Origin: Fibrobacteria bacterium
GTDB taxonomy: Bacteria > Fibrobacterota > Fibrobacteria > UBA11236 > JADFYW01
DNA length: 32,000 nt
NCBI GenBank assembly: GCA_050294405.1
Contig: JBNKOC010000012.1
Location: 103,031 to 135,030, forward strand
Direction of reading: 5' to 3'
Within the stretch, counting starts at the first letter, position 1; each line of letters begins with the position of its first letter. A program made the translations under genes and the position numbers. Under the pieces are notes generated by a model. The model was not told where the DNA came from. It saw only the letters and a list, made by a program, of their open reading frames with translations, and searched no databases. Below, in pieces: positions 3,660-30,553 of the stretch.

Positions 3660-5441
3660 ATGAGTTTCACAGAGTCTCTTTTTTGGTACAAGTGTTGCTC
3701 TTTCATAATAAATATGATAGCCATCCAAGAACGCAATAATCACAAGCTAGAAATAGTTTTGGGTCAATCCAGTTTGACTGGTCTTAGGGAGCGTAATGAA
3801 GATTTTTATGCATGTATTAAGCCGCAAAAGGTATCGACTTTAAATTACAAGGGTATTGCAGCAGTAATTGCGGATGGTGTTGGAGATACGGGTTATGGAC
3901 AAGAGGCTAGCCGTTATGCGGTGAGCACTTTTTTCTCAGAATATTTCAGTACTCCCGATTCTTGGAGCATAGAGCGATCCGGGGAAGAGGTGATAAAATC
4001 CATTAACAGTTGGTTGTACTCCCAGTCAGAACGCAACATTGGGGATAGTGGCCTTATGACGGCTTTCTCTGCAGCTATTTTATGTGGAAGCACTCTGCAT
4101 ATTTTCCATGTGGGAGACACAAGAATTTATTTAAAAGCAAAAAATAAATTAAAAAGGCTCACCAAGGATCATAGGGCTCATCACGGCCAAAATCAAATAA
4201 TTCGGGCATTGGGGTTAGATAGTAATGTTTACATCGATTATACACAGGAGATATTGGAACCAGATTCTTCTGTTATTATGATGACGGATGGCGTGCATAA
4301 TTATTTATCTGATGATAAAATCACAGGTTTTTTAAATAAGTTTGCAGCTCCTCAAGTGGCTTCAGAAGCATTAACAATGGCATCTCTTCGTGAGGGAAGT
4401 ACTGATAACATAAGCTGTCAAATAATTAACATAAAACACCTTCCTCCGTCGACAAAAAATGAAATTTATCAACGTTCCCGTGACTTGAAATTCCCCCCTC
4501 CCTTGAAAGTGGGTGCTTTTGTGGATTCTTATGAAATTCAGGAAGAACTAGGTTATGGAGCTATGGGGATAGTGTATTCCGCTTACGATTCTAAGAATGA
4601 TAAAGTGGTGGCTTTAAAGTGTCCCCGACAAGAATTTGAACAGGATATTATTTTCAGGGAAAGGCTCCTAAGGGAGGAATGGATTGGCCAGCGAGTTCAC
4701 AATCCAAATTTGATGAAAGTGCTGAATCCGAGTCATGTGCGCATGGAATACCATTATTTGGTAATGGAGTATTGTAAGGGATTTTCTCTTCGGGAACAAT
4801 TGGATAGTGGTAAGCATTTTAGTCATAATGATGTTGTTGAAATTGCTAAACAAATATGCAGAGGGTTGACAGAACTTCATCACATGGAAATTGTCCATAG
4901 GGATATTAAACCTGATAGTATTATTTGGAGTCAAGACGGTATGGTTAAGATAATCGACTATGGCATAGCCAAAGTTGGTAGTTTAAAATCTTTAACTTCA
5001 AATGCCAACGCTCCATGGATGGGAAGTCCCAATTACATGGCTCCTGAGATGTTCAAAAACAGTAGGGGGAATTCTGTCACGGATATATTCAGCCTTGGTG
5101 TCACCATGTATGAACTGTTAACAAGCTCCATGCCATATGGGGAGATAGACGCTGGAAAAGGTTATAAGAATACTGAGTTTGTTTCTTTACAAGAACTAAA
5201 CCCGGAAGTACCTAGCTGGCTTTCTACGGTGGTAGTTAAATGTTTGCACTTAGATCCTGACTCACGGTATCAAGCTGCTTCAGAAGTTCTATATGATTTG
5301 GAACATCCAGAAAAGGTTTTGCCTGATATGCGTTTTATTCCTTTATTGGAACGAAACCCTGTACTTGTTTGGAAAGTGATTTCGGCGACATTGCTTGGGA
5401 TTGTAGTTGTTTTGTCAGTGCTTTTGATTCGAGGGCGTTAA
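3660..5441 (+). CDS. Bifunctional PP2C-type Ser/Thr phosphatase / Hanks-type Ser/Thr kinase with a C-terminal membrane anchor (true start probably the ATG at 3714)
   Basis: PP2C motifs: AVIADGVGD, HVGDTRIY, MMTDGVHNY, GSTDNIS. Kinase motifs: GYGAMG P-loop, VALK lysine, HRDIKPDS catalytic loop, DYG, APE. The last ~25 residues are hydrophobic (VISATLLGIVVVLSVLLI) followed by RGR. Confidence 0.9.
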   Translation: MSFTESLFWYKCCSFIINMIAIQERNNHKLEIVLGQSSLTGLRERNEDFYACIKPQKVSTLNYKGIAAVIADGVGDTGYGQEASRYAVSTFFSEYFSTPDSWSIERSGEEVIKSINSWLYSQSERNIGDSGLMTAFSAAILCGSTLHIFHVGDTRIYLKAKNKLKRLTKDHRAHHGQNQIIRALGLDSNVYIDYTQEILEPDSSVIMMTDGVHNYLSDDKITGFLNKFAAPQVASEALTMASLREGSTDNISCQIINIKHLPPSTKNEIYQRSRDLKFPPPLKVGAFVDSYEIQEELGYGAMGIVYSAYDSKNDKVVALKCPRQEFEQDIIFRERLLREEWIGQRVHNPNLMKVLNPSHVRMEYHYLVMEYCKGFSLREQLDSGKHFSHNDVVEIAKQICRGLTELHHMEIVHRDIKPDSIIWSQDGMVKIIDYGIAKVGSLKSLTSNANAPWMGSPNYMAPEMFKNSRGNSVTDIFSLGVTMYELLTSSMPYGEIDAGKGYKNTEFVSLQELNPEVPSWLSTVVVKCLHLDPDSRYQAASEVLYDLEHPEKVLPDMRFIPLLERNPVLVWKVISATLLGIVVVLSVLLIRGR

Positions 5442-9712: not shown

Positions 9713-10384
9713 ATGGACAAAATAAGTTCTGGTATGCTGCCCAGAGAAAAAATAATGCGTTTTGGGGTGGAAAAGTTAGAGGTATGGGAGTTGTTTGCTG
9801 TAGTTTTAGGGGTTGGTTACCCAGGAAAAGGTATTCTGGAACTTTCCAAAGATATCATTGAGGGTATTTCTGCCAACTCTAGTTATCCTAATCTTGAAGA
9901 ATTGGTTCAAATAAAGGGAATTGGTGAGGCTAAGGCTTGCAAAATATTAGCTGTTTTGGAGCTTTCCAAAAGGTTTATACCATTTGCAGAAAGAGCTAGT
10001 CTTAATTGCCCAGAGGATTTTATTCCGCTACTAGCACCCTTAAAATTTGCCAACCAGGAAGAGTTTTGGGTTTTTACGCTGGATTCAACAAATAAGCTTA
10101 TACAATCCCATGCAGTTACAAAAGGTTTGGTGAACCAAAGCCCCATTCATCCCCGAGAGGTTTTTGCTCCTGCTATAGTAGATAGAGCTGTAAACCTAGT
10201 TTTATGCCATAACCATCCTTCTGGAAGCCTCAAACCCTCCAGGGCAGATTTGGATGTGACTCGGGAATTGGTGAGTTTGGGTTCTCAATTAAAAATACCC
10301 ATCCTAGATCATATTATCGTATCCAGCAAAGGTATATGTTCTTTATCCAGGGAAATGCCGGATTTATTTTTGTATGGCCCTTAG
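9713..10384 (+). CDS. radC: RadC-family JAB/MPN-domain protein
   Basis: 223 aa. It has an HhH-like IKGIGEAKACKILA segment and the JAMM motif HNHPSGSLKPSRADLDVT. AGGTGA Shine-Dalgarno at 9704-9709. Confidence 0.9.
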   Translation: MDKISSGMLPREKIMRFGVEKLEVWELFAVVLGVGYPGKGILELSKDIIEGISANSSYPNLEELVQIKGIGEAKACKILAVLELSKRFIPFAERASLNCPEDFIPLLAPLKFANQEEFWVFTLDSTNKLIQSHAVTKGLVNQSPIHPREVFAPAIVDRAVNLVLCHNHPSGSLKPSRADLDVTRELVSLGSQLKIPILDHIIVSSKGICSLSREMPDLFLYGP

Positions 10385-10410
10385 GGGAAAAGAAGACCAT
10401 AATTAGGTAC

Positions 10411-11919
10411 ATGCGGGTAATCCATAAATTTTGGAAAAGAATAGGGCTGCTTTTGTGCTCAGCCTATTTGGTTTCAAGTTGCGTAAAGATTGAAACAAAA
10501 GAAATAAAATACCCTGATGGAGCGATAAAAGAAAAATATAGCTATTACCTGGCTGAAGGCGGTTTGGAAATCTGGGATGGAAAATACAGCCGTTGGTATC
10601 CATCGGGAAAACTCGCCGAAGAATCAAATTGGAATGAAGGTATTCTCCACGGGGTTCAAACTCAGTGGTATGAAAATGGCAATAAAAAAATGGAAGGAAA
10701 CTGGATTTTTGGAGAGGAAGAAGGTGTTTTTAAGAAATGGTATGTAAATGGTCAGTTGGCTGAAGAAATGGCTTTTGAAACCGGCCGCCCCAAAGGACAA
10801 AAAACAGTGTGGCATCCTAATGGAAAGAAAAAATCAGAATTGATGATTGTTAACGGATTAGAAGATGGGATAGAAAATATATGGGATGATAATGGAGATG
10901 TTTATTCCCAAAGGTTTTGGATAAGTGGAAAGCTTGATAGCGTTAAAACATACATTCCCGAGTCAGAGTTGAAACAAATGTCAATCGAGTTTGAGCCTGG
11001 AAAAAAGGCGGAGGAATTTAGCTATTTTTTAGATCCTGATGGAAACCAAATTCGACATGGAGATTTAAAGCAATGGTATGACAACGGGCAGTTGGAACGA
11101 AATATTTCTTTTGATTTCGGAAAAAAAAATGGAATGGAAATTTGGTATTTCGAAAATGGTTTAAAAAAATCAGAAATTCCCTGGAAGGTTGGGAAAAAAG
11201 ATGGCGTGGAAAAACATTGGTATCCAAATGGTGAATTTCAAAAAAGTGAAGAAAACTATGATACAGGGATATTAAATGGAGTTGTAAAAAACTGGTACCC
11301 AAATGGTAAATTAAAAAGTGAATTTTATTACGTTGATGGCAAACTCAGCGATACAGCAATGCTGTGGTTTGAATCGGGTACATTAAAGTCCAAAGCAGTT
11401 TACAGTGAAGGTAAGCTCAATGGCCAGGTGATCAGTTGCTACCCTATAGGACAAAAGAAATCTGTAGCTAGTTTTCAGGAAGGTGTAAAACATGGGAAAT
11501 ACCAGGAGTTTTATACTCATGGTCAGATAAAGTTGGAAGTGGAATACAATCGGGGTATAAAAATTGCGGAAAGTGTTAAGAAGTGGACTAAAGGTGGAGA
11601 TAGGGTGGATTTGAGCAAAATGTATACAGCTGTTGAAAAAGCCCAGTTGGAGCAAAAAATCAAACAATCCCATTCTAATTGTCAAAAAGAAATTGAGAAC
11701 GTTGCTGAACTTAAGGCAAAGTTAAATAGCGGTAGCCTGTATAAAGAACTGCAAAAACTTGAAATCAGCTACAACAGATCAGAACAAAAAAAAGAGGAAG
11801 AGTGCGAGTCCTACGGGGACAAAGTTGAAGAATACTTAAATTATTTTTCAAAAGAAGAATTGGATGAATTTTTACGTCTACAAAACTTAAGCCCTCTTAA
11901 TAGCCCCGGTTTCAACTGA
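10411..11919 (+). CDS. MORN-variant (YwqK-like) repeat lipoprotein with a C-terminal coiled-coil tail
   Basis: The ORF track starts at 10336. The ATG at 10411 gives a signal peptide with the lipobox LVSS-C. About 14 repeats of about 23 aa follow (G.....W/Y..NG.L..E......G...G). The last ~110 aa are K/E-rich and helical. Confidence 0.8.
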   Translation: MRVIHKFWKRIGLLLCSAYLVSSCVKIETKEIKYPDGAIKEKYSYYLAEGGLEIWDGKYSRWYPSGKLAEESNWNEGILHGVQTQWYENGNKKMEGNWIFGEEEGVFKKWYVNGQLAEEMAFETGRPKGQKTVWHPNGKKKSELMIVNGLEDGIENIWDDNGDVYSQRFWISGKLDSVKTYIPESELKQMSIEFEPGKKAEEFSYFLDPDGNQIRHGDLKQWYDNGQLERNISFDFGKKNGMEIWYFENGLKKSEIPWKVGKKDGVEKHWYPNGEFQKSEENYDTGILNGVVKNWYPNGKLKSEFYYVDGKLSDTAMLWFESGTLKSKAVYSEGKLNGQVISCYPIGQKKSVASFQEGVKHGKYQEFYTHGQIKLEVEYNRGIKIAESVKKWTKGGDRVDLSKMYTAVEKAQLEQKIKQSHSNCQKEIENVAELKAKLNSGSLYKELQKLEISYNRSEQKKEEECESYGDKVEEYLNYFSKEELDEFLRLQNLSPLNSPGFN

Positions 11920-11979: not shown

Positions 11980-14157
11980 ATGGAAATTCCAGTAGCTGTA
12001 AAAGCAGCAAAATATTTAATGCTGCTGTCTGCTTTATCTCTGCAATTTTCCTGTAAGCAAAATGGAAGTGTAAAAATGGAAAATAAATTACGAAATGAAA
12101 AAAGCCCCTATCTCCTGCAGCATGCTAAAAATCCGGTCCATTGGTATCCTTGGGGTGAGGAAGCGTTTAACAGAGCTAAAAAAGAAAATAAACTAATACT
12201 ATTGTCCATTGGTTATTCTACTTGCCACTGGTGCCATGTCATGGAAAAAGAATCTTTTGAAAAAGAGGATGTGGCAGCTATCCTTAACAAATATTATGTA
12301 AGTATTAAGGTAGATAGAGAGGAACGCCCGGATGTAGATAATTTGTATATGGGATTAGCACAAGCTTTAGGGGTTGGGGGAGGCTGGCCCCTTAATTTGT
12401 TCTTAACTCCCGACCAGGTTCCTTTTACCGGGGGCACCTATTTTCCTCCGGAAGATGCTTATGGTAAGCGAAGTTTTAAATATGTGCTTCAAACTGTGGC
12501 AAAAATGTGGGAAAGCGAACCTCAGAAAATTTTAGATACAGAAAAAGGGGTGCTAAAATATATCAATCAAAAAAATGAAGTAACCCCCACAGCTGTAAAT
12601 ATTGAAGCGTTGCATCAAAAGGCGATTTTAGAAAAAGCTTCTATGTATGAGCCGGCGTATGGGGGCTTTTCTTCAGCTCCAAAGTTCCCTATGGGTCACG
12701 CACTTTCCTATTTGATATTGCTCGAAAAAAGAAATCCAGACAAAGTGCTTCTCAATAGAATAACCCACACTTTGGATAACATGGCTTCGGCCGGGCTTTA
12801 CGATCAAATTGGAGGGGGGTTTCATCGTTATTCCACAGACAGGGAATGGCTGGTGCCCCATTTTGAAAAAATGTTATACGACCAGGCGCTTTTGATTACT
12901 GCATATGCCAATGCCTACAGCAATACCTTAAATAGCCGCTATGCAGAAATTGTAGCGGAAACAATTGAGTATCTGCGTAGAGATATGTTGGATGAAAAGG
13001 GAGGTTTTTATTCGGCTGAAGATGCCGATAGCGAGGGAGAAGAAGGGACTTTTTATTTATGGGAAATATCGGAACTCAAGGAATTAGTTCCAGAGAATAT
13101 TGGAATGTTAATGGATTGGTTTGATATAAAAGAGCATGGGAATTTCGAGGGAAAAAATATTTTAACCCGTAAACATACTATTAGATGGTTGGCGGAAAAG
13201 TATGGAAAAGATGAAGACGGGTTGAAAGCTAAAATAAAGGAAATGAATTCCAGGCTTTTGGCCGCAAGAAGCCAAAGAATCCGGCCTCATTTGGACGATA
13301 AAATTTTAACAGACTGGAACGGTTTAGTTATATCGGCGTTAAGCAAGGCAGCCCAGGCTTTGCCCGATTCGCTGGGCGATATATATAAAAAAGAAAATAG
13401 CCTTAATATGGCAAAAAATGCGGCCGAATTTGTTTTAAAAGAATTAAGAGATAAGGATAACCGGCTTTTAAAAAGTTACAGGCAAGGGCCTTCTAACATC
13501 GCAGGGTTTATTGAGGATTACGCCTTTTTTGCCAATGGACTATTGGACTTGTATGAAAGCAGTTTCGAAGTAAAATACCTTGAGGAGGCTGTGGCTACAG
13601 CCCGCCAGATGATTGAAAATTTTTGGGACTCCAAGGACGGTGGCTTTTATTTTATTCCTAAAGATGGAAGCATGCTCTTAAAAAATGCCAAGGAACTCAA
13701 TGACGGAGCTATTCCCAGCGGAAATAGTGTGGCGGCGCAGGTATGTGCTCGTCTATATCGCATTACCGCAAATGAGGAATACAAAAACATATTGGAAAAA
13801 ATGATTTCCTTTTTTGGCCCTCAAATTAATACCTATCCTTCCAGCTATCCTGTTTTTTTATCCGCATTGGATATGTATTATAATCCCGGTCCTGAAATTA
13901 TTTTATCCGGAAATAAAGAAAACGAATCCTTTAAAAAAATTTGGAGCCTGGTAAAAAAATACCCATCCATAAACCAAATATTAATTCATGTTCCTGAACA
14001 CAGTGAATCAGCCATATTTGAAATAGCTCCTTTTACCAAACAACAACGAGTCGTTGAAGGAGATGTAACCTTTTATTATTGCCAAAATAGAACATGCCAA
14101 AGACCTTTGAATTCTCCCGTAGATGTGGAAGAATTTTTAAAATCAGTTGCCGGATAA
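11980..14157 (+). CDS. Thioredoxin-domain protein of the YyaL/DUF255 (SPATA20-like) family, apparently a lipoprotein
   Basis: The ORF track starts at TTG 11962. The ATG at 11980 gives MEIPVAV...[10 protein letters not shown]. It has the conserved [12 protein letters not shown] thioredoxin-like motif, followed by a long alpha-helical (alpha/alpha-barrel-like) region. Confidence 0.85.
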
Positions 14158-14865
14158 TATTTGCAATATTGTGCTTTTGTGATTATCGAGATAATAAGAA
14201 AAATCGTGAAGGCCATCAGGGAAAATATACAGGCTGGTGTTTGGATTTTGTTTTTTCCATTCTTTAAAAACAGGTTCAATTTTTTCAATTGGAAAGAGTC
14301 TGTCGTTTCCTCCCTGAAAAAAGTGCCAATGCCCTTTTTGAAACCCATCTTGACTGTAATTTTTTTGATTTAAAATAATTTGAGGGGCGCTGGAAAATAA
14401 AAGCCTCTTGGTTATATTAAAGGGGCTGTTAATACTAAAGTGAATCACGGCTAAAGAGCCATCCGAAACACCAAATAAAATAATCGGCAATTTTTCCAAT
14501 TGCTGTTTGGCGATAAATTCCCTTAAAAAACTATTTATGTTTGTCATTAGTTGCGGGTGAAGCCAATGTAAGTTTCTATTGGCTGAGGGGCTGAATACTA
14601 TATAATCATTTCTGTTTATAAGAGGGTATATGCCTGTTAAGGCTTGTTTCCCTTTGTCTGATATGGGACTATTCATGCCGCCATGAAACCAGATGATAAT
14701 ACCTTTGGCCGAGGTCATGTTTGAAGGAAAGCTGGCGCCGTAGAAAACATTTTCAGAGCCGAATTGAAAAATGGAGTCCCGGAAGGAAAAAGAATTCTCC
14801 AGAAAGAAAAACAAATGGCAAAATAATAAAAGATGAATCTTTGTATTCATACTCATTAATTGCAA
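14143..14865 (-). CDS. Secreted alpha/beta-hydrolase (esterase-like), function unknown
   Basis: 240 aa with an N-terminal hydrophobic signal. HGG oxyanion motif (IIWFHGGMN), nucleophile elbow GVSDG, and candidate Asp (GGNDRLFP) and His (DGLHDF). It starts 21 nt downstream of motB on the same strand. Confidence 0.65.
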
Positions 14866-17044: not shown

Positions 17045-18092
17045 AAGCTAGTTTCTCAAAGGTGATTTTGTGCCCCACTGCATCTCCCAAAGAACCGGTG
17101 ATAAACCGATCTCCAGCTATGTAACTTACCCCAATGGATACTCCAAAATGTTTGGAGAGTTGAGCGTTATATCCATAGGTAAAAACCGGAATGCTGCCTG
17201 TAAATAAAAAAGGAACATAATAGTAGGCGCTAAAATAGGTCCCCAACCAATGGCCCCTGTCCCGGTTTCCTTTGGGAACTAACACGGCCCAAACTCCAAC
17301 TCCAATTTGCATGGTGTATATGCCGCTGTAGCCCAATTCAATACTGTCTTTTTTGGAGATTGCCATGCGGGATACACCTGCGTTGATGTTAAACCACAAC
17401 CTTCGGTTTTTGGTCAAGGCTTCAGTGACACTCCCTTCAATGGCGACTTGGTTAAACCCGGTTTCCTTGTCTATGCCGCTTTGTCCCTCAAACTTTTCCA
17501 TGGAAAAAATTCGAATAGGTACATGAGCGGACCATTTTAAGTCGAATATGCTAGGCTCCACCTTGTTGGGTCCTGCGATAAAATCTCCAGACCACAATAT
17601 TTCAGCAGTTCGGTGCTTCACTAATTTTAGATTTAACATTACATCGCCATCCTTGGACTTGCTGCAAGAACCTTCAATAAAAGCGTCAATTCTTAATTTA
17701 TCGCCAAGCTTCCAAAGCTCTTCGATAGTAGGAATGGTGTTAGACATGCTAAAGGAGGTATCGGTGCTGATAATATTCAGGGTTTTTAGTTCGGGGGGAG
17801 ATACTAGCGTACGGCGGCCTTCATCCCGCAATGTAGTTTCAATTCGGCCTTGAATGTATCTGGACTCCCCTTTTGTGAAACCTTTGGAATCCGTTCTGAT
17901 TTGGTAAATGGCGATTTTTTCCACCGAGGGAGGTATATCCCCTAATGTTTCCTTTAGCTCAGCAATAATTTTTTCAATTTGCTTGATTCCGGAGGATGTT
18001 TCATAAAAGGGATGGTTCTCCGGTAGGTTTTCCGTTACATTGTCCCCGAAAGAAAAGGCGAATAGAAACCCCAATAATGTTAGTATTCTCAT
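17013..18092 (-). CDS. Outer-membrane protein: CsgG/FlgO/LpoB-like periplasmic domain plus a C-terminal beta-barrel-like region
   Basis: 359 aa with signal peptide MRILTLLGFLFAFSFG. The N-terminal half follows the pattern KIAIYQIRTD...IQGRIETTL...LGDKLRIDAFIEGS...VMLNLKLVKHRTAEILWSG. The C-terminal half has alternating amphipathic strands and ends in ...LNYTF, a terminal Phe OMP signature. Strong GGGAGG/GGAGG Shine-Dalgarno upstream. Confidence 0.6.
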   Translation of the reverse strand: MRILTLLGFLFAFSFGDNVTENLPENHPFYETSSGIKQIEKIIAELKETLGDIPPSVEKIAIYQIRTDSKGFTKGESRYIQGRIETTLRDEGRRTLVSPPELKTLNIISTDTSFSMSNTIPTIEELWKLGDKLRIDAFIEGSCSKSKDGDVMLNLKLVKHRTAEILWSGDFIAGPNKVEPSIFDLKWSAHVPIRIFSMEKFEGQSGIDKETGFNQVAIEGSVTEALTKNRRLWFNINAGVSRMAISKKDSIELGYSGIYTMQIGVGVWAVLVPKGNRDRGHWLGTYFSAYYYVPFLFTGSIPVFTYGYNAQLSKHFGVSIGVSYIAGDRFITGSLGDAVGHKITFEKLAYEVDILNYTF

Positions 18093-19933
18093 GCCTCCGG
18101 CCTCCCGCCATAGGCTTTGATATCCTGCCTGATTTTTTGCAAAAGGGTTTTTTGCGCGCTTTCAATTTCTTCAGCTTTTAAATCGGTTTTGGTTTCCAAA
18201 CCCGATTTTATCATAAGCTGCATCCGCTCAGGTAGTAAGGAAATTACTTTTAATTTTATGTCTTCTTCTACTCCGGCAAGGGCATTGGTAAGTACATCCT
18301 GGTTTACATTTCTAACAGAATTAGTGAGAAACTTGTCGGGAAGGCTGGTGATTTCAGGTAGGGTGATAAAATTGTTTTTGATTTTTTCCGCCAGGTTTAA
18401 ATCCACTTCTGCAATGGAATTCAGATATTCTCCCTGGACAGAAATGGGAAGGCTGTCTAAAACATCCAGTACGCTTTCAATGCCATCAGAAGCTACATAG
18501 CGCATGTTTATAACTTCAAGCGCGTTGGCAGACAATCTATCCGCTAGTTCCTTGTATACTTTAAGGGGGATGTTTTGAATTTTTCCCATTCCCGCAAGAA
18601 TTTTTGTGCGCTTGGATTTATCCAATTTTTGAAGTATGGAGCTTGCTTTGGACGGTTCCACCTGGGCTAAAGCCATGCCAATGATTCCTTCAGATTCCTC
18701 CTTTAACAGGTGGAGGATTTGTTGTTCGTTCATCTGGCGCAAAAACCCAAAGAGATCTGCATATTCGCTTTCGTTTATTATGGAGCTGGTTTGGTTTTGG
18801 TAATCTTCTTTGAATTGCTTATACACAGCTAAAACTTCTTCCCCCGCCAAGGGTTCCAATTGTTTTAACCTATTTTCGATATTTTTAGTTTCTTCTTTTC
18901 CCAGTTCTGTGGAAACAACTTTTAATATTCTTTCATCAACTGCCTTAATTAATTTTGTTGTTTCCTGATGTCCTTCTTCACCTTTTTGCTGAATCCATTT
19001 CTTTAATACCTGAGAGCTGGAGGCTGTGTCCCCAATAAAGGCGCTTAACACATAAGAACGCATTTCCCGGAGTTCGTTATTCCCACTGTCCTCTTCTTTA
19101 TTAGCCTCTGTAGATTTTTCTTTTTCGGGAGCTGTTTTAATTTCCTGGAGTTCGTTGATGATGTTAGTATAGGAATCCTGGACCTTGCTTCGCTGCCGGT
19201 TTTTAGAAAACGCTCGGGAAACAATAACGGCAATTAACAAAACAAAAATGCAAATGATGAGTAGGGGTATTAAAGAAGCCAGGTTGTCCACCAAAGGTTT
19301 GAAGGGGTTTAATTTTTCCTCTTTTTCCAACAGCTCGGAATCCGCCTTACTGCTGGGTAAGGCTTTTGGGTCCATGTTTTCAGCCAATTGATATCCCGAA
19401 TTAGGCTTTTTCTGGACTGGGAAAATTCCGGAGCGAATATCCAGCCTGTCTCCCCGATATTCATTTAAATTTGCCGACATGCTAATAAGCTTTTTAATAA
19501 AGGAGTAGTCTTTATCTTCATAGCTTGTATCCACCATGATTTCCACTTCCACATGGTTAATGGAAAAGTCACTTTGTTTTTTCCCAGCCCTGGCTTTTGC
19601 CGCCCCTTCCTTCATGTCATTGGGCAACACAGGCAGCCCCGGCAGGGTGTATATATCATCCAAATCCCCTTCCAGATCAATTTCTTCAGACTCGTTCAGA
19701 AACACATTGGCATCTACTAAAAAAGTCCGTTCATCATAATATTTGCTGAGAACATCTTTTATTAGAACTTCGTAGTAGTGGGAGGCTTTGCGAGATTGGG
19801 CTTCGTATTTGCTTCTATCCTCATTTTTAACTTTAAATTCCTGGCCATTAGCCGGGGCAAAAAGGATTATTGCAAAAAAGGCCCACTGGATGATGCCTGC
19901 AAATTTCATTGATACACTCAATTTTTGAAGCAA
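18089..19933 (-). CDS. Membrane-anchored FliF-like / FliG-like fusion protein (probable true start at ATG 19909)
   Basis: Signal peptide or TM1 MKFAGIIQWAFFAIILFAPANG. The periplasmic ~190 aa end in VEVEIMVD...FIKKLISMSANLNEYRGDRLDIRSGIF, which resembles a FliF/SctJ ring-building motif. TM helix at aa 217-239, followed by KNRQRSK. The cytoplasmic ~320 aa align by eye to FliG N, M (ILHLLKEESEGIIGMALAQVEPSKASSILQKL) and C (DKFLTNSVRNVNQDVLTNALAGVEEDIKLKVISLLPERMQLMIK...AEEIESAQKTLLQKIR) domains. Confidence 0.7.
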   Translation of the reverse strand: MLQKLSVSMKFAGIIQWAFFAIILFAPANGQEFKVKNEDRSKYEAQSRKASHYYEVLIKDVLSKYYDERTFLVDANVFLNESEEIDLEGDLDDIYTLPGLPVLPNDMKEGAAKARAGKKQSDFSINHVEVEIMVDTSYEDKDYSFIKKLISMSANLNEYRGDRLDIRSGIFPVQKKPNSGYQLAENMDPKALPSSKADSELLEKEEKLNPFKPLVDNLASLIPLLIICIFVLLIAVIVSRAFSKNRQRSKVQDSYTNIINELQEIKTAPEKEKSTEANKEEDSGNNELREMRSYVLSAFIGDTASSSQVLKKWIQQKGEEGHQETTKLIKAVDERILKVVSTELGKEETKNIENRLKQLEPLAGEEVLAVYKQFKEDYQNQTSSIINESEYADLFGFLRQMNEQQILHLLKEESEGIIGMALAQVEPSKASSILQKLDKSKRTKILAGMGKIQNIPLKVYKELADRLSANALEVINMRYVASDGIESVLDVLDSLPISVQGEYLNSIAEVDLNLAEKIKNNFITLPEITSLPDKFLTNSVRNVNQDVLTNALAGVEEDIKLKVISLLPERMQLMIKSGLETKTDLKAEEIESAQKTLLQKIRQDIKAYGGRPEA

Positions 19934-25656: not shown

Positions 25657-26460
25657 TTATAGTTTTGCGCCGCATTTTTTGCAATAGAAGGCATCTATTT
25701 CATGGCCTTCATAGCTGCAACTTGGACAGGCCTGAGTTGAAATAAAATCTTGTTTGCTCTGGCTGAGCTCTGCAGACACAATCCCTGTGGGAACAGCTAA
25801 AATTCCAAATCCCATTACCATTACTATTGATGATAAAAATTGCCCCAGCACAGTTTGAGGGGTGACATCCCCATAACCCACAGTGGTGAGAGTGACTATG
25901 GCCCAGTATATGCCTTTTGGGATAGAAGTGAAACCGTTTTTTTCACCCTCTACCAGATACATCAGGCTTCCGATTATAATAACCAAAGTGAGAACACCAA
26001 TTAAAAACACAGTGATTTTTGGACTGGCTGCTTTCAAGGCCCTGGTTAAAATTTGACCTGCTTTTAAGTAACGCCCCAGCTTAAATATTCTGAATATTCT
26101 AACTAAACGAATGGCGCGTATTATCAACAGGTAATGGAAATCTTGCAGAAACAGGCTTAGGTATGTTGGCAGCAAACTCAGCAAATCTACAATTCCATAG
26201 AAACTGAAAATGTATTTGCTTGGGCGCTCAATGGAAATAATCCGCAGGCCGTATTCTAGGGTAAACAAAATAGTGATTACCCATTCTAAAATACGCAGTT
26301 CCCTGCCAAAGGCCAGGTTAAAACTCTTTACGCTTTCTAACATCACCGCAAGGATACTAATTCCAATTGCCCCCAAAAGGGCCACATCAAAGGCTTTTCC
26401 CATAGGGGTGTCTGCCTCATAGATAACGGTATGTAGAGTTTGTCGCCACTTTGATTTCAT
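25657..26460 (-). CDS. Voltage-gated-type (6TM) potassium channel with a C-terminal zinc-ribbon
   Basis: 267 aa. S4-like helix IIRAIRLVRIFRIFKLGRYLK, selectivity filter TTVGYGD, and a C-terminal CPSC-x12-CKKC motif. Confidence 0.88.
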   Translation of the reverse strand: MKSKWRQTLHTVIYEADTPMGKAFDVALLGAIGISILAVMLESVKSFNLAFGRELRILEWVITILFTLEYGLRIISIERPSKYIFSFYGIVDLLSLLPTYLSLFLQDFHYLLIIRAIRLVRIFRIFKLGRYLKAGQILTRALKAASPKITVFLIGVLTLVIIIGSLMYLVEGEKNGFTSIPKGIYWAIVTLTTVGYGDVTPQTVLGQFLSSIVMVMGFGILAVPTGIVSAELSQSKQDFISTQACPSCSYEGHEIDAFYCKKCGAKL

Positions 26461-27717: not shown

Positions 27718-28434
27718 TTACTGTTTGTTTATATACTTCAAGCCTTCCCTTTTGGTCAGGGCGGGTAATGTTTGGGATTTGATAAATTGAACAACGGTTT
27801 TTGCATTTGTTTTGGAATATTCCCGCAAAGCCCAGCCCATAGCTTTTTGAATAAAAAACTCTTTAGATTCCCTCTCCTGCAAGATAAAGTTTTTTAAAAT
27901 CTCCCAATCTGTTGTTTGTTTGTATTTTAGCTGGAATAAAATGGCAGAACGGCGAATCCACATGTTATTATCTGTTATCCAATTATTAAGGGACTGTTTT
28001 AGCTCCTGATTTTTTGCTAAGTGCCCCAGAATATAGCTGCTTAAAAAATCCACCGTATCCCACCAGGATTTAGAGCGAATTAATTTTTTGAGCTGGGGTA
28101 AAAAATAGGGCGTTAGTAAAGATTTGTGAGAAATTAATAAATCCACTGCGCATAATTGGAATTCTCTTTCGGGAAGCTTGTAGAAGTCGTTAGACATTTT
28201 GATAAGGCTTTTTTCAGAGGGAAAGGCAATAACAGCAAAATGTTTTTTTAACAATTGTCTTCTTTCGTCGGCGTTTATTCCAAAAAAGGAAAATTTGTTT
28301 TTTAAATAGGCCTCCATTTGCGAGGCCTTGTGTTTGTTGCTGTGCTTTTTAAAATCTGCCTGAAGTCTTTCAAATGCCTTAACATATTGCCCGGCAAAAT
28401 CCAAAGCCATCTTAATTTTCCGCAGATAAGCCAA
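27718..28434 (-). CDS. DNA alkylation repair protein (AlkD/AlkC-like HEAT-repeat family)
   Basis: 238 aa with WWDTVDFL, MWIRRSAILFQL and FFIQKAMGWALREYSKTN motifs typical of the DNA alkylation repair enzyme family. An alternative ATG lies at 28410. Confidence 0.8.
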   Translation of the reverse strand: MAYLRKIKMALDFAGQYVKAFERLQADFKKHSNKHKASQMEAYLKNKFSFFGINADERRQLLKKHFAVIAFPSEKSLIKMSNDFYKLPEREFQLCAVDLLISHKSLLTPYFLPQLKKLIRSKSWWDTVDFLSSYILGHLAKNQELKQSLNNWITDNNMWIRRSAILFQLKYKQTTDWEILKNFILQERESKEFFIQKAMGWALREYSKTNAKTVVQFIKSQTLPALTKREGLKYINKQ

Positions 28435-29338
28435 GTTTTTTGAGCAGGGCCCTATCTTTGTCGGAGTTTTTTCCCCAGTAGGCGCTATGTAATTGGTGGG
28501 TTTTTACAGCACTGGTTGTAAGGGGTTCCCCCCCTTTAATACTTGGGTAGCTTTCGGTCCATTTGTGAATTTCAAATGGAAAATTAGCTTCAAAATAAAC
28601 AATGAGTTCTCTTTTTAATTCGGGATAGCTCAGAGTATAAGCCACCAGCTCTTTTCCCTCCGCGTTTTTTTCCTGGGATTTAGCTAGGCTTGCCTTTGCT
28701 GTATATGCCTTAAGCGGCTTGTGAACCATGCGGATGTAAGAACTAAAGGGGATTATATTACTTTCACCCAGTGGTAATTTGTTTGGGTTTAAGCGAATAG
28801 TGCTAAACAACCCATCTTCTGTAAAATTGGCGGGGAGGTTAAAATTTTTATCTCCCTCTGATTCAAAATAGGAACGCACTTCCACCTCATAATTCTTTTC
28901 TCTTAAATTAAATTGGTTGAATACATGGCCACACCACTCCGATACGCTGGTGCTGATTTTATAGGGAAGCAATTGTTTGTCCGCATTAACATTGTTAAAG
29001 CTGGAAGTCATAATGGTGTATGGATAAATCCCAGTATAAAATCTCTTATAGGCATTTAATTTTAAAATGGGCTTGGAAGTGGAATCAGGGTAATCCGCTT
29101 TCACTTGTTTTTCGGGGTTGAACTTTTCTGTCACAAATATATGAACGGCACTGCCCTTGTGGTTTTCTCCATAACGAGCTTGACTTAAGTCAAAACGAGT
29201 GATTTCGGCTCCCTTGTGGTACCAGTACTTTTTAAAGTTTTCAGGTTCAGGCAATTTGAAAATTATAGTTTGCTCTTTTCCCAGACAGCTCAAAAGCGAA
29301 AGCTGCATTATCAACAGACATAGAAACTGAAATTTCAT
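28412..29338 (-). CDS. Lipoprotein of unknown function
   Basis: 308 aa with signal peptide MKFQFLCLLIMQLSLLS-C. I recognise no motif. Its 3' end overlaps or abuts the AlkD-like gene. Confidence 0.6.
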   Translation of the reverse strand: MKFQFLCLLIMQLSLLSCLGKEQTIIFKLPEPENFKKYWYHKGAEITRFDLSQARYGENHKGSAVHIFVTEKFNPEKQVKADYPDSTSKPILKLNAYKRFYTGIYPYTIMTSSFNNVNADKQLLPYKISTSVSEWCGHVFNQFNLREKNYEVEVRSYFESEGDKNFNLPANFTEDGLFSTIRLNPNKLPLGESNIIPFSSYIRMVHKPLKAYTAKASLAKSQEKNAEGKELVAYTLSYPELKRELIVYFEANFPFEIHKWTESYPSIKGGEPLTTSAVKTHQLHSAYWGKNSDKDRALLKKLGLSAEN

Positions 29339-29551: not shown

Positions 29552-30553
29552 TTGGGTTCCTGGTTGTTGAATATAGCGAGCTTTGCTGCTTGGGCCGTTT
29601 TATTGGCTGCGCTTTGGCAAAGTTGTGAAGAAAGTAACATCACCCAGCCTTCCATGGATAAATTACCGGCTTCCATTTCCACTTCCGGTGTATTAAAAGA
29701 TGCAGGCTGGACCGATAGCTCATATTCTAAGCTGGGAATTGTAAAACATGGCGATAATTACGACAAAATTTTGCGGAACCACTCTTACCTCCACGCCTTT
29801 CGCCCTTCGCCTGTTACCAAAGATTCCTTAGAAACAGTCCTTTCCCAGGTAATCACTCAGGTGGTTTCCGGGGCGGGAGAATTGCAAATCCCCTCTATTA
29901 AAACCACAGCATATTCCTTTTCCAAAGGAAGGATGGGTGATGTGCTTTGGGAAATGGAAGCGCCTGGAATCAACGGGGAAATTTTTAATGGCTTTTATCG
30001 CGTTGAACGCAAGGAATGTTGTGGCCTCGGAAAGCTTTATGCCCTTTATAATCTTACCAGCGGTCAAAAAATTATCAGCTATTCCAACAGCTATTTAAAA
30101 TTAGAAGCTGTGGATGGAAGCGCAAAAAGGCTTTTGGGCCTTAAATCCGGCGCCAGCAGCTATCTTGAAATTTATGAAGAAGATCCATTATACATAGGGA
30201 CTTTAAGTTACTCCAGTATGGAAGGAGAATTGGAAATAGCTGTTTTGATGGCCAAAGACAGCCTTTCAAAATCCAAATTGGAGAACTCCCTCAGTCTTAA
30301 CTTTTTGGCTCCATTAAGTGCAAACATATCCCAGGATGTTATTTTTGGAGAAAGGAGCTTTAGGGTTCCTCCTCAGCCAGCGGAAGGTTCGAATTACCCC
30401 CTTTGTACAGTTTCCTTAAACCTGGAGCCGGAAGAAAAAAGTCTATCCATCGAAGTTTATTCCGACAGTCTGGGCCTGCAAAACTTAAGGGAAAATGGGT
30501 TGTCCGTGGATATTATTAACCCCATGCTTCCTGTGTCCACAAAAGCGGAATAG
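29552..30553 (+). CDS. Exported protein of unknown function (possible lipoprotein; TTG start)
   Basis: 333 aa with an N-terminal hydrophobic segment ending ALWQS-C. The composition is coding-like with no recognisable motifs. Confidence 0.55.
   Translation: MGSWLLNIASFAAWAVLLAALWQSCEESNITQPSMDKLPASISTSGVLKDAGWTDSSYSKLGIVKHGDNYDKILRNHSYLHAFRPSPVTKDSLETVLSQVITQVVSGAGELQIPSIKTTAYSFSKGRMGDVLWEMEAPGINGEIFNGFYRVERKECCGLGKLYALYNLTSGQKIISYSNSYLKLEAVDGSAKRLLGLKSGASSYLEIYEEDPLYIGTLSYSSMEGELEIAVLMAKDSLSKSKLENSLSLNFLAPLSANISQDVIFGERSFRVPPQPAEGSNYPLCTVSLNLEPEEKSLSIEVYSDSLGLQNLRENGLSVDIINPMLPVSTKAE

Follow-up and report, generated by a model that had tools for sequence, protein, structure and literature searches.

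The closest natural precedent for a single chain uniting the flagellar proteins FliF and FliG seems, by analogy, to be the FliF-FliG protein of the Chlamydiaceae. This polypeptide of about 330 residues has been described as containing ring-building motif (RBM) 2, an additional unassigned RBM-like region and a homologue of the FliG middle domain only, and it has been discussed in connection with the injectisome and not with the MotAB stator (Bergeron 2016, PMC4768692). The same paper cites two engineered Salmonella FliF-FliG fusions (PMC4768692). In addition, 'numerous homologues' of motAB and fliG with an unclear role have been noted in free-living non-flagellated Elusimicrobiota (10.1101/2022.07.08.499144). 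In this study we analysed a stretch of 32,000 nucleotides (hereafter the window) of contig JBNKOC010000012.1 from a Fibrobacteria bacterium, in which one gene on the minus strand encodes the distal part of FliF continued by all three domains of FliG. This fusion gene opens an operon whose subsequent genes encode an outer-membrane beta-barrel protein, a lipoprotein with tetratricopeptide repeats (TPR), MotA and MotB, all on the same strand. Francis et al. are said to have found in 1992 that Salmonella FliF-FliG fusions support rotation, and a covalent join of this kind would then be compatible with function. What appears to be new here, as far as it can be read from the sequences, is a natural, truncated and switchless rotor fusion within a self-contained cassette of stator and outer-membrane genes. 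We found no description of this five-gene cassette in the full-text literature, the coverage of which leaves out most subscription journals. The picture that we favour, with somewhat better than even confidence, is that the fusion protein forms a switchless rotor ring which works with its own MotAB stator and whose output is directed to the outer membrane.

The first-pass annotation of this DNA had placed the fusion gene at 18089-19933. The open reading frame (ORF) is real and is present in the ORF list of the window at these positions (minus strand, TTG start, 614 residues), but the start is more likely the ATG at 19909. It is there that a sequence-identical database protein of 606 residues (P0001), encoded on a 768-kb contig, begins, and this makes 18089-19909 the likelier extent of the gene. 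Residues are numbered below in the 606-residue form; the earlier numbering followed the form that is eight codons longer. The sub-coordinates proposed earlier agreed with the translation: this applied to the transmembrane (TM) helix at residues 217-239 of the 614-residue form (19217-19285), to the ESEG motif and the segment from R570 to G578 (both listed in the table below), and to the end of the RGD...F segment at 19421. The order of elements in the protein is a signal peptide with a probable cleavage site, an RBM3-like domain, the TM helix, the FliG-binding motif of FliF, and the FliG N, M and C domains.

This architecture is shared by a large family. When 1.84 billion cluster representatives were searched exhaustively with a profile, 178 matched at E ≤ 1e-30, and 131 of the best 150 of these were full-length proteins. 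These 131 proteins are the sample for all FliG residue-column counts given below; Pfam counts refer to 71 diverse members. The RBM3-like N-terminal domain was present in 130 of the 131, and all but two had a clear hydrophobic segment of the TM type. The full architecture was thus found in at least 130 clusters defined at 50% identity, which is far beyond chance. Since proteins of equal length occur in at least 130 independent clusters, an assembly or frameshift artefact joining fliF to fliG is excluded. The survey for proteins of FliF-like plus FliG-like architecture, which had been suggested together with the first reading of the DNA, yielded a family of at least 130 clusters, and the gene neighbours recorded along with it keep their order in 18 distinct loci. 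In public databases the members are named 'FliG C-terminal domain-containing protein', 'flagellar motor switch protein FliG' or 'hypothetical protein', and those with a named source are almost all from Fibrobacterota. A scan of genomes found 22 loci, of which all but two were labelled as Fibrobacterota or Fibrobacteria metagenome-assembled genomes (MAGs).

Two loci and one database protein deserve separate mention. A MAG assigned to the Balneolales carries a full-length fusion gene (L025, 1895-3793) with Glu at positions +6 and +8 after the Arg of the torque helix. A bin labelled 'Bifidobacteriales' (L005) also carries a full-length fusion gene; because its product is 51% identical to the window protein, this label is probably a binning error. 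The third is a stand-alone FliG-like relative of the fusion family, the 310-residue protein P0163, which has a canonical N-terminus, the ALKG motif, an R...DE torque helix and ENAR in place of EHPQ. P0163 may either be related to the family without being fused or be the canonical FliG in a related lineage.

The identity of the N-terminal half was addressed with both profiles and structure models. We compared a family profile built from 89 diverse full-length members with the sequences in PDB. Its strongest match was FliG (1lkv, E=7e-46), and it also matched Salmonella FliF (6scn_A, E=6e-6, profile positions 142-313 to residues 404-559 of 560), Vibrio FliF (8z5s, E=5e-6, residues 418-579 of 580) and the FliF RBM3 chain 9yh6 (E=1e-4, profile positions 37-175). 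SpoIIIAG followed at E=0.05 and MgtE at E=1. Since the profile and the printed alignments run co-linear with FliF 404-559, the fusion chain is FliF from RBM3 through TM2 to the FliG-binding C-terminus, continuing straight into FliG_N. The sensitivity of this comparison depended on the profile: one built from 18 N-terminal sequences reached FliF only weakly (E=0.027), and E=6e-6 required the 89 full-length sequences. When the segment from the TM helix to FliG_N was used as a single sequence against PDB, no match was obtained.

The AlphaFold model of the fusion protein (16 input sequences, mean predicted local distance difference test, pLDDT, of 72) was consistent with this assignment. After the signal peptide it contains a helix (residues 26-55), a strand (63-73), a loop of low confidence (76-112), a second strand (115-127), a helix (132-145) and a third strand (155-161), and then the TM helix (204-236) and an all-helical cytoplasmic region. 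The topology of the RBM3-like domain is thus alpha-beta-(insert)-beta-alpha-beta, with the insert exactly at the position of the beta-collar of FliF RBM3. When the whole model was searched against PDB with Foldseek, 13 FliG entries came first (E from 2e-9 to 3e-5), and the alignments to full-length FliG extended over 311-331 columns. They were followed by the FliF-YlxF integrative model 9a67_A (E=2.7e-3) and then by an unbroken series of FliF S-ring/RBM3 chains, among them 7d84_A, 6scn, 8ftf_A, 6sd1_A and the Vibrio chain 8z4d_1. More than 15 such chains were matched at E 0.007-0.03 with a probability of 1.0 and a TM-score of 0.5-0.6 on the target. The earliest MgtE entry appeared at E=0.14.

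The alignments are specific to FliF at the motif level as well. The family pattern '…FI..L….A.LDEFRGD…I….F' stands opposite residues 404-437 of Salmonella FliF ('…GFSDKRGDTLNVVNSPF'), and the RGD..F segment is aligned with 'KRGDTLNVVNSPF' of FliF; the domain terminates in RGD...FP. Pfam YscJ_FliF_C matched residues 119-168 weakly (E=0.005), and it matched 24 of the 71 family members, with a best value of 7e-8. The resemblance to the end of FliF RBM3, which had been proposed in the first reading, is therefore real, as seen from the 6scn_A and 9yh6 matches, the RBM3 chains found by Foldseek and the RGD..F alignment. It had also been proposed that the periplasmic region is truncated, and this was borne out: it comprises about 185 residues, which is room for one RBM, and RBM1 and RBM2 are missing. 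No Pfam YscJ_FliF N-terminal family was detected for RBM1 and RBM2, the SctJ-homology region around the export gate, and the FliF profile match starts at residue 404. In place of the long beta-collar, which in FliF comprises about 110 residues and grips the rod, there is an insertion of 37 residues at the equivalent topological position. This insertion bears a near-invariant LPGLPxLP motif, in which P90 and G91 are almost invariant among the 89 diverse members.

In the family alignment the N-terminal hydrophobic segment closes with Ala or Gly directly before Gln, with a small residue at position -3. A Gln at +1 after the signal peptidase I site is typical of the Fibrobacteres-Chlorobi-Bacteroidetes (FCB) group. 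Cleavage of the signal peptide is thus probable, and the mature protein would then be bitopic. Only a single hydrophobic 19-mer is found in the fusion protein, at residue 205, and the TM helix that contains it is followed by a basic stretch (SRAFSKNRQRSK). Further downstream the profile segment 'gnPeksaevlksWieed' stands opposite the extreme C-terminus of Salmonella FliF ('NDPRVVALVIRQWMSNDHE', which ends at residue 560), and the C-terminus of Vibrio FliF is aligned likewise. The pattern of the FliG-binding tail, …P….A..(I/V)(R/K).W…, is present in this segment, and the profile reaches the final residues of Salmonella FliF (…DPRVVALVIRQWMSNDHE, to 560). The model is confident here, with pLDDT values of 86-90 over most of residues 281-312.

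The C-terminal 290 residues are occupied by the three Pfam domains of FliG, with the accessions PF14842, PF14841 and PF01706. FliG_N scored 30.7 bits against a cut-off of 25 (56 of the 71 family members), FliG_M 38.0 bits (68 of 71) and FliG_C 65.2 bits (E=7.6e-18; 71 of 71), the latter two also above their gathering cut-offs. Together with the Foldseek match to full-length FliG at 2e-9, these scores support the co-linear FliG N, M and C module seen in the first-pass annotation. At the same time, the scores for the NCBIfam FliG equivalogs were far below their cut-offs (TIGR00207, 82.7 bits against 226.7; NF004260, 33.6 against 550). The fusion protein is thus FliG-like, but it does not appear to be an ordinary FliG, and by its domain content it should be filed neither as FliF nor as FliG.

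The motifs by which FliG contacts its partners were of particular interest. In HMMER alignments LKEESEG stood opposite LQSEHPQ of Thermotoga maritima FliG (1LKV, E=2e-14) and LKNEHPQ of Aquifex aeolicus FliG (3HJL), and the E. coli alignment gave the same result, so that ESEG occupies the EHPQ column as had been claimed. Across the family the Glu of this column is retained in 109 of 131 proteins, and the His, Pro and Gln are not conserved. In the C-terminal domain 'ERMQLMIKSG' (LPERMQLMIKSGLE) was aligned with 'KRAAALLKDE' (SKRAAALLKDELE) of solved FliG, and 'FITL' is found here where T. maritima FliG has 'MFVF'. For the comparison with E. coli FliG we used a sequence in which K264, R281, D288, D289, R297 and EHPQ at 125-128 match the published numbering. 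In the MAFFT alignment K264 was replaced by Ala, which agrees with the Lys-to-Ala change in ALKG reported before, R281 was retained as Arg (R562), D288 and D289 corresponded to Ser (S569) and Gly (G570), and R297 corresponded to Lys. The R281 column holds Arg or Lys in 127 of the 131 proteins. The residues opposite D288/D289 are Ser/Gly, Gly/Gly, Ser/Ser or similar across the Fibrobacteria clade and are always uncharged. Thus, the retention of the Arg and the Ser-Gly replacement were described correctly in the first reading, but it is the Fibrobacteria clade, and not the whole family, that lacks the acidic pair, since a Glu stands opposite D289 in 58 of the 131 members.

The stator encoded in the same operon could be identified with confidence. 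The best solved relatives of the cassette MotA, a four-TM protein, are Clostridium sporogenes MotA (1e-33) and PomA (2e-27), and the equivalents of its channel prolines P173 and P222 are conserved. The cassette MotB has a plug, the channel Asp (TYGDMITLL) and an OmpA-type peptidoglycan-binding domain, and the Asp is kept in 19 of the 19 family MotBs in which the TM segment is shown. Conservation of the MotB Asp and the MotA prolines implies that the cassette stator should conduct ions. The E. coli interface contains two charge pairs, one between MotA R90 and FliG D288/D289 and one between MotA E98 and FliG R281 (PMC12505986). In the MotA of the window the E98 equivalent is kept and the R90 equivalent is Ser. 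Moreover, among the 21 cassette MotAs compared (the window and 20 loci) the R90 column is Gln, Ser, Thr, Gly or Asn in all 21, and the E98 column is Glu or Asp in 20. In the Fibrobacteria clade, then, rotor and stator have both retained one canonical charge pair and both lack the other. Such matched retention and loss is expected if the cassette MotA works on the FliG-like domain of the fusion.

A misassignment of the cassette was considered in two forms, namely that the cytoplasmic part is MgtE-N or a generic helical repeat, or that the cassette is a Zorya-like anti-phage system. Taken together we regard these as hardly credible. MgtE_N was matched below threshold in the window protein, at E<0.01 in 48 of the 71 family members and at best with 1.6e-8, but the FliG scores were far higher, FliG alone covered the N, M and C domains, and the full-length profile gave 7e-46 for FliG against E=1 for MgtE chains. 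The window protein itself scored 19.4 bits for MgtE_N, under the cut-off of 25.9, so that the MgtE-N alternative raised with the first reading fails, and neither a CBS domain nor the MgtE membrane domain is present. With PADLOC, MotB matched generic ZorB models at 2e-19. These ZorB/MotB matches were the generic ones only, ZorA was reached at E=0.004, the MotA of 264 residues has no long ZorA tail, and no ZorC or ZorD was found. For the cassette proteins other than MotA and MotB, PADLOC gave no match.

The genes of the operon are closely packed, the junctions being overlaps of 4, 32 and 1 bases and a final gap of 11 bases. Wherever a genome locus extended far enough downstream, the order of fusion, barrel, lipoprotein, MotA and MotB was identical; with 15 distinct loci of this kind and three remote members, 18 distinct loci show it, and the flanking genes differed. 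The remote members (L026-L028) are 20-28% identical to the window protein and show the same order among unrelated housekeeping genes. A scan for promoters and terminators across the operon found sites no more frequently than in shuffled sequence and was thus uninformative on the operon boundaries; hosts of the Fibrobacteria type probably have other promoter types. In the first-pass annotation the fusion gene itself was read correctly, but the downstream MotAB and outer-membrane genes were not connected to it. These genes are the strongest evidence for the role of the fusion gene. The coordinates of all features are collected in the table.

Table. Features of the fusion gene and its operon (positions in the window; residue numbers of the fusion protein in the 606-residue form).
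Feature	Position	Strand	Basis
FliF(RBM3-TM2-C-tail)-FliG(N-M-C) fusion gene	18089..19909	-	ORF, P0001, Pfam, PDB profile matches to FliG and FliF
N-terminal signal peptide, residues 1-22 (MKFAGIIQWAFFAIILFAPANG, followed by Q)	19844..19909	-	sequence reading; family alignment
RBM3-like periplasmic ring-building domain, residues 26-165	19415..19834	-	AlphaFold, Foldseek (7d84_A, 6sd1_A, 8z4d_1), 9yh6 profile match, RGD alignment
37-residue insertion between RBM strands 1 and 2 at the beta-collar position, residues 76-112	19574..19684	-	low-confidence model loop
TM helix, FliF TM2 equivalent, residues 204-236	19202..19300	-	model helix; hydrophobic 19-mer; FliF profile co-linear across TM2
Equivalent of the FliF C-terminal FliG-binding tail, residues 274-312 (…FIGDTASSSQVLKKWIQQKGEEG)	18974..19090	-	profile alignment
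FliG N-terminal domain, residues 314-404	18698..18970	-	Pfam FliG_N
FliG middle domain, residues 396-466; ESEG for EHPQ at 18686-18697	18512..18724	-	Pfam FliG_M; 1LKV/3HJL alignment
FliG C-terminal domain, residues 498-595; torque helix at 18200-18226	18125..18418	-	Pfam FliG_C; alignments
Gene 2, outer-membrane protein, 359 residues	17013..18092	-	AlphaFold (36 sequences, pLDDT 80), Foldseek; 4-base overlap with fusion gene
Gene 3, lipoprotein, 225 residues	16367..17044	-	lipobox (...LGAMGC), Pfam TPR_1 E=1e-5, family alignment, conserved cassette position
Gene 4, flagellar-type MotA, 264 residues	15573..16367	-	Pfam MotA_ExbB; PDB matches
Gene 5, MotB, 224 residues	14887..15561	-	Pfam MotB_plug and OmpA; PDB MotB/PomB 4e-30

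The strict synteny also bears on the idea that the cassette is a functionless, decaying remnant of flagellar genes left after motility was lost. Losses of this kind are evident, as EHPQ, D288/D289, RBM1 and RBM2 are gone. Against decay, the ORFs are intact and conserved in length in at least 130 clusters, the invariant columns include LPGLP, RGD, the MotB Asp and the R281 equivalent, and the conserved gene order includes two non-flagellar genes. We therefore consider a decaying remnant highly improbable. The maintenance of the full architecture in at least 130 clusters points to selection, and we count it in favour of a working rotor.

The two non-flagellar products belong to the outer envelope. 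The protein encoded by gene 2 consists of a signal peptide, a periplasmic alpha/beta domain similar to TolB-N and LpoB (residues 59-173) and a C-terminal beta-barrel (residues 186-358) ending in ...YTF. It matched no Pfam family, and its homologues are all named 'hypothetical'. In Foldseek searches the N-terminal domain was closest to TolB (8e-7) and the C-terminal domain of LpoB (2e-5, TM-score 0.71), followed by GNA1162, PelC and FlgT (4e-3), and the barrel resembled OprG, OmpA, OmpW and NspA (OprG, OmpA and OmpW at approximately 1e-4). The lipoprotein encoded by gene 3 has a short, conserved beta motif (ISYTNKS...D..L.MSG), a low-complexity linker and a TPR-like C-terminal domain. Its homologues in a clade with high guanine-plus-cytosine (GC) content (L001, L007-L012, L014 and L023) have 390-470 residues compared to 225-265 elsewhere. 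The extra length consists of low-complexity stretches rich in Pro, Ala, Lys and Glu on both sides of the TPR-like domain, which recall the periplasm-spanning spacers of TonB and TolA.

Because of these partners the fusion protein could instead be a static platform on which MotAB would act as TolQR and ExbBD act on TolA and TonB, passing a cyclic change or tension to the outer membrane in the service of envelope tethering or maintenance. The cassette does contain parts like those of Tol-Pal (a stator pair, an OmpA-type binder, a TolB-N-like domain with 8e-7 as its top Foldseek value and a CpoB-like TPR protein), only a single rotor-stator charge pair is retained, and the Pro/Ala/Lys-rich stretches of the high-GC lipoproteins are similar to TonB/TolA spacers. 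However, the stator is one of the flagellar type and not a TolQR or ExbBD pair, the closest solved relatives of MotA and MotB being flagellar stators, and the plug is present. In addition, the TolB matches had low TM-scores (about 0.2) outside the N-terminal domain, and what has been retained, RBM3, FliG N, M and C and the torque-helix Arg, is exactly what a rotating ring requires. A static platform thus seems unlikely to us.

It is also conceivable that the cassette is an accessory of a conventional flagellum, for example a second rotor-stator set, a stator reservoir, or a scaffold resembling FlgT/FlgO/FlgP or PflA/PflB. TPR scaffold proteins such as PflA and PflB occur in high-torque motors, and the periplasmic domain of the barrel protein is weakly FlgT-like (E=4e-3). 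For Fibrobacterota, flagella have been inferred to be both an ancestral and a common trait (PMC4704652). However, neither fliM or fliN nor any other flagellar gene was found in the 32-kb window or in the flanks of roughly 20 kb of the loci that were read, and the remainder of the window consists of housekeeping genes. Moreover, a FliF without RBM1 and RBM2 cannot house an export gate, the known basal bodies offer no place for a second membrane ring of FliF-FliG, and the fusion lacks the FliM-binding motif needed to join a C-ring. We therefore hold a role as a flagellar accessory to be rather improbable, even more so than a static platform.

For the favoured picture of a switchless rotor ring with its own stator, the following mechanism can be proposed. 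The fusion subunits would build a ring in the inner membrane by packing of RBM3 in the periplasm and stacking of the FliG armadillo domains in the cytoplasm, with the FliF:FliG ratio held at 1:1 by the fusion. The ring of canonical FliF comprises about 33-34 subunits. Stator units of the MotA5B2 type would be anchored to peptidoglycan via the OmpA domain of MotB, ions would pass by the conserved MotB Asp, and the stators would push the FliG_C torque helix via the retained charge pair equivalent to R281-E98, so that the ring turns. With EHPQ lost and neither fliM nor fliN beside the cassette, a C-ring and switching under the control of CheY would be lacking, and the motor would turn in one direction. 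The absence of a normal C-ring had already been suggested from the diverged motifs, and the lack of fliM and fliN in the window and the flanks that were read strengthens this suggestion. Since RBM1 and RBM2, which house the export gate, are gone, nothing would be exported, and a rod, hook or filament would not be made. Work would leave via the periplasmic ring, probably through the LPGLPxLP loop, to the TPR lipoprotein and the outer-membrane barrel. The outcome would be a compact trans-envelope machine that carries ion-motive energy to the outer membrane. Any one cellular role, such as surface translocation, secretion or envelope maintenance, could be named with much less confidence than this overall picture.

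Several observations weigh against this picture. The Foldseek E-values for RBM3 are modest, and the loop at the collar position was modelled with pLDDT below 50. In the remote members a Glu occupies the D289 position, yet R90 is missing from their MotA too. With one of the two canonical rotor-stator charge pairs left, coupling may be weak or altered. Synteny is the sole pointer to a contact of the fusion protein with the barrel or the lipoprotein. Finally, with flagella being ancestral in Fibrobacterota, the cassette might act beside a conventional flagellum. A stronger version of the picture remains more tentative, and we would put it at somewhat less than an even chance: a free-standing non-flagellar rotary motor, in which the fusion ring is turned one way by its own MotAB and passes torque to the barrel and the lipoprotein in hosts without flagellar export and axial genes. 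Such a motor could be a surviving relative of a rotor-stator core that predated its union with type III export, or it could have arisen by radical reduction and reuse of a flagellum.

Other genes in the vicinity were also inspected. A protein with MORN_2 repeats is encoded in the window at 10336-11919 on the plus strand, about 3 kb beyond motB, and is a probable lipoprotein if translated from an internal Met (…LVSSC). In 12 high-GC Fibrobacteria loci (L001, L002, L007-L015 and L023) a MORN-repeat ORF immediately precedes the fusion gene in divergent orientation, at a distance of about 250-1400 bases. The MORN-repeat protein could be a sixth, loosely linked component, or the arrangement could reflect synteny within the clade only, the similarity being driven by the repeats. 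On the same strand as the operon and after motB lies an ORF for an alpha/beta-hydrolase-like protein of 240 residues (14143-14865, weak Hydrolase_4). It had no counterpart after the cassette in any other locus and is thus probably outside the system. Further away the window encodes a 593-residue protein with an N-terminal PP2C phosphatase and a C-terminal Ser/Thr protein kinase domain (3660-5441, plus strand), and a 267-residue protein with Ion_trans and Ion_trans_2 (25657-26460, minus strand), which is a single-domain cation channel of the voltage-gated type in the size class of NaChBac. Two ORFs of 308 and 333 residues (28412-29338, minus strand, and 29552-30553, plus strand) had no Pfam match at E ≤ 0.01.

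Almost all work on the torque-generating core of the flagellum has been done in complete flagella, and a conserved cassette of this kind would show that the core can be selected by itself. A conserved rotor-stator module without export, axial and switch parts would come as a surprise to specialists of the motor, and a free-standing rotor core is directly testable. The cassette also bears on the origin of the flagellar motor, namely on whether the rotor and stator or the export apparatus came first. With a FliF:FliG ratio fixed at 1:1, no switch complex and an interface of one charge pair, the cassette would offer a minimal experimental system suited to structural and single-molecule work. Furthermore, Fibrobacterota and their relatives may in this way possess an unrecognised route by which ion-motive energy reaches the outer membrane. 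On the practical side, correction would be due for hundreds of entries that now bear the name 'flagellar motor switch protein FliG' or 'hypothetical', as they can mislead predictions of motility from metagenomes.

Compared to the flagellar rotor and stator, the cassette shares RBM3 with RGD...F, TM2, the FliG-binding motif of FliF, FliG N, M and C with the Arg equivalent to R281, and a MotA and MotB with the plug, the channel Asp and the peptidoglycan-binding domain. Unlike in the flagellar rotor, FliF and FliG form one polypeptide, RBM1 and RBM2 are missing, the beta-collar of about 110 residues is reduced to a loop of 37 residues, and the N-terminal TM segment is probably a cleaved signal peptide. 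The FliG part differs from FliG in the loss of EHPQ, in the uncharged residues at the D288, D289 and K264 positions and in being fused to a membrane protein instead of being separate and soluble, and the cassette MotA differs from flagellar MotA by lacking R90. Flagellar loci differ as well, since the cassette has no genes for FliM, FliN, the export gate, rod, hook or filament close to it and its partners are a barrel and a TPR lipoprotein. With Tol-Pal (TolQRA-TolB-Pal-CpoB), ExbBD-TonB and GldLM the cassette has in common an ion-driven inner-membrane motor of the 5:2 type that is encoded together with outer-membrane or periplasmic partners, and the TolB-N-like domain, the OmpA-type peptidoglycan binder and the TPR protein are shared with systems of the Tol-Pal type. 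In contrast to these systems, the stator belongs to the flagellar MotAB clade and a FliF-FliG ring protein takes the place of TolA, TonB or GldM; neither the beta-propeller of TolB nor the lipoprotein Pal is part of the cassette.

The homologues of motAB and fliG noted in the Elusimicrobiota may, by analogy, be the same cassette in another phylum. In the engineered Salmonella and Vibrio fusions (PDB 8z4d/8z4g, which form MS-rings) the C-terminus of FliF is joined covalently to the N-terminus of FliG as it is here. However, those constructs contain full-length FliF (945 residues in 8z4d) and work inside complete flagella with C-rings, whereas the cassette fusion is natural, truncated and switchless. 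The Chlamydiaceae protein resembles it in being a natural single chain with a shortened periplasmic region of FliF, two hydrophobic segments, a cytoplasmic end derived from FliG and no full flagellum around it. Unlike the Chlamydiaceae protein, as that protein has been described, the cassette fusion has 606 residues, contains RBM3 and all FliG domains including the torque helix, and is encoded in one operon with a stator.

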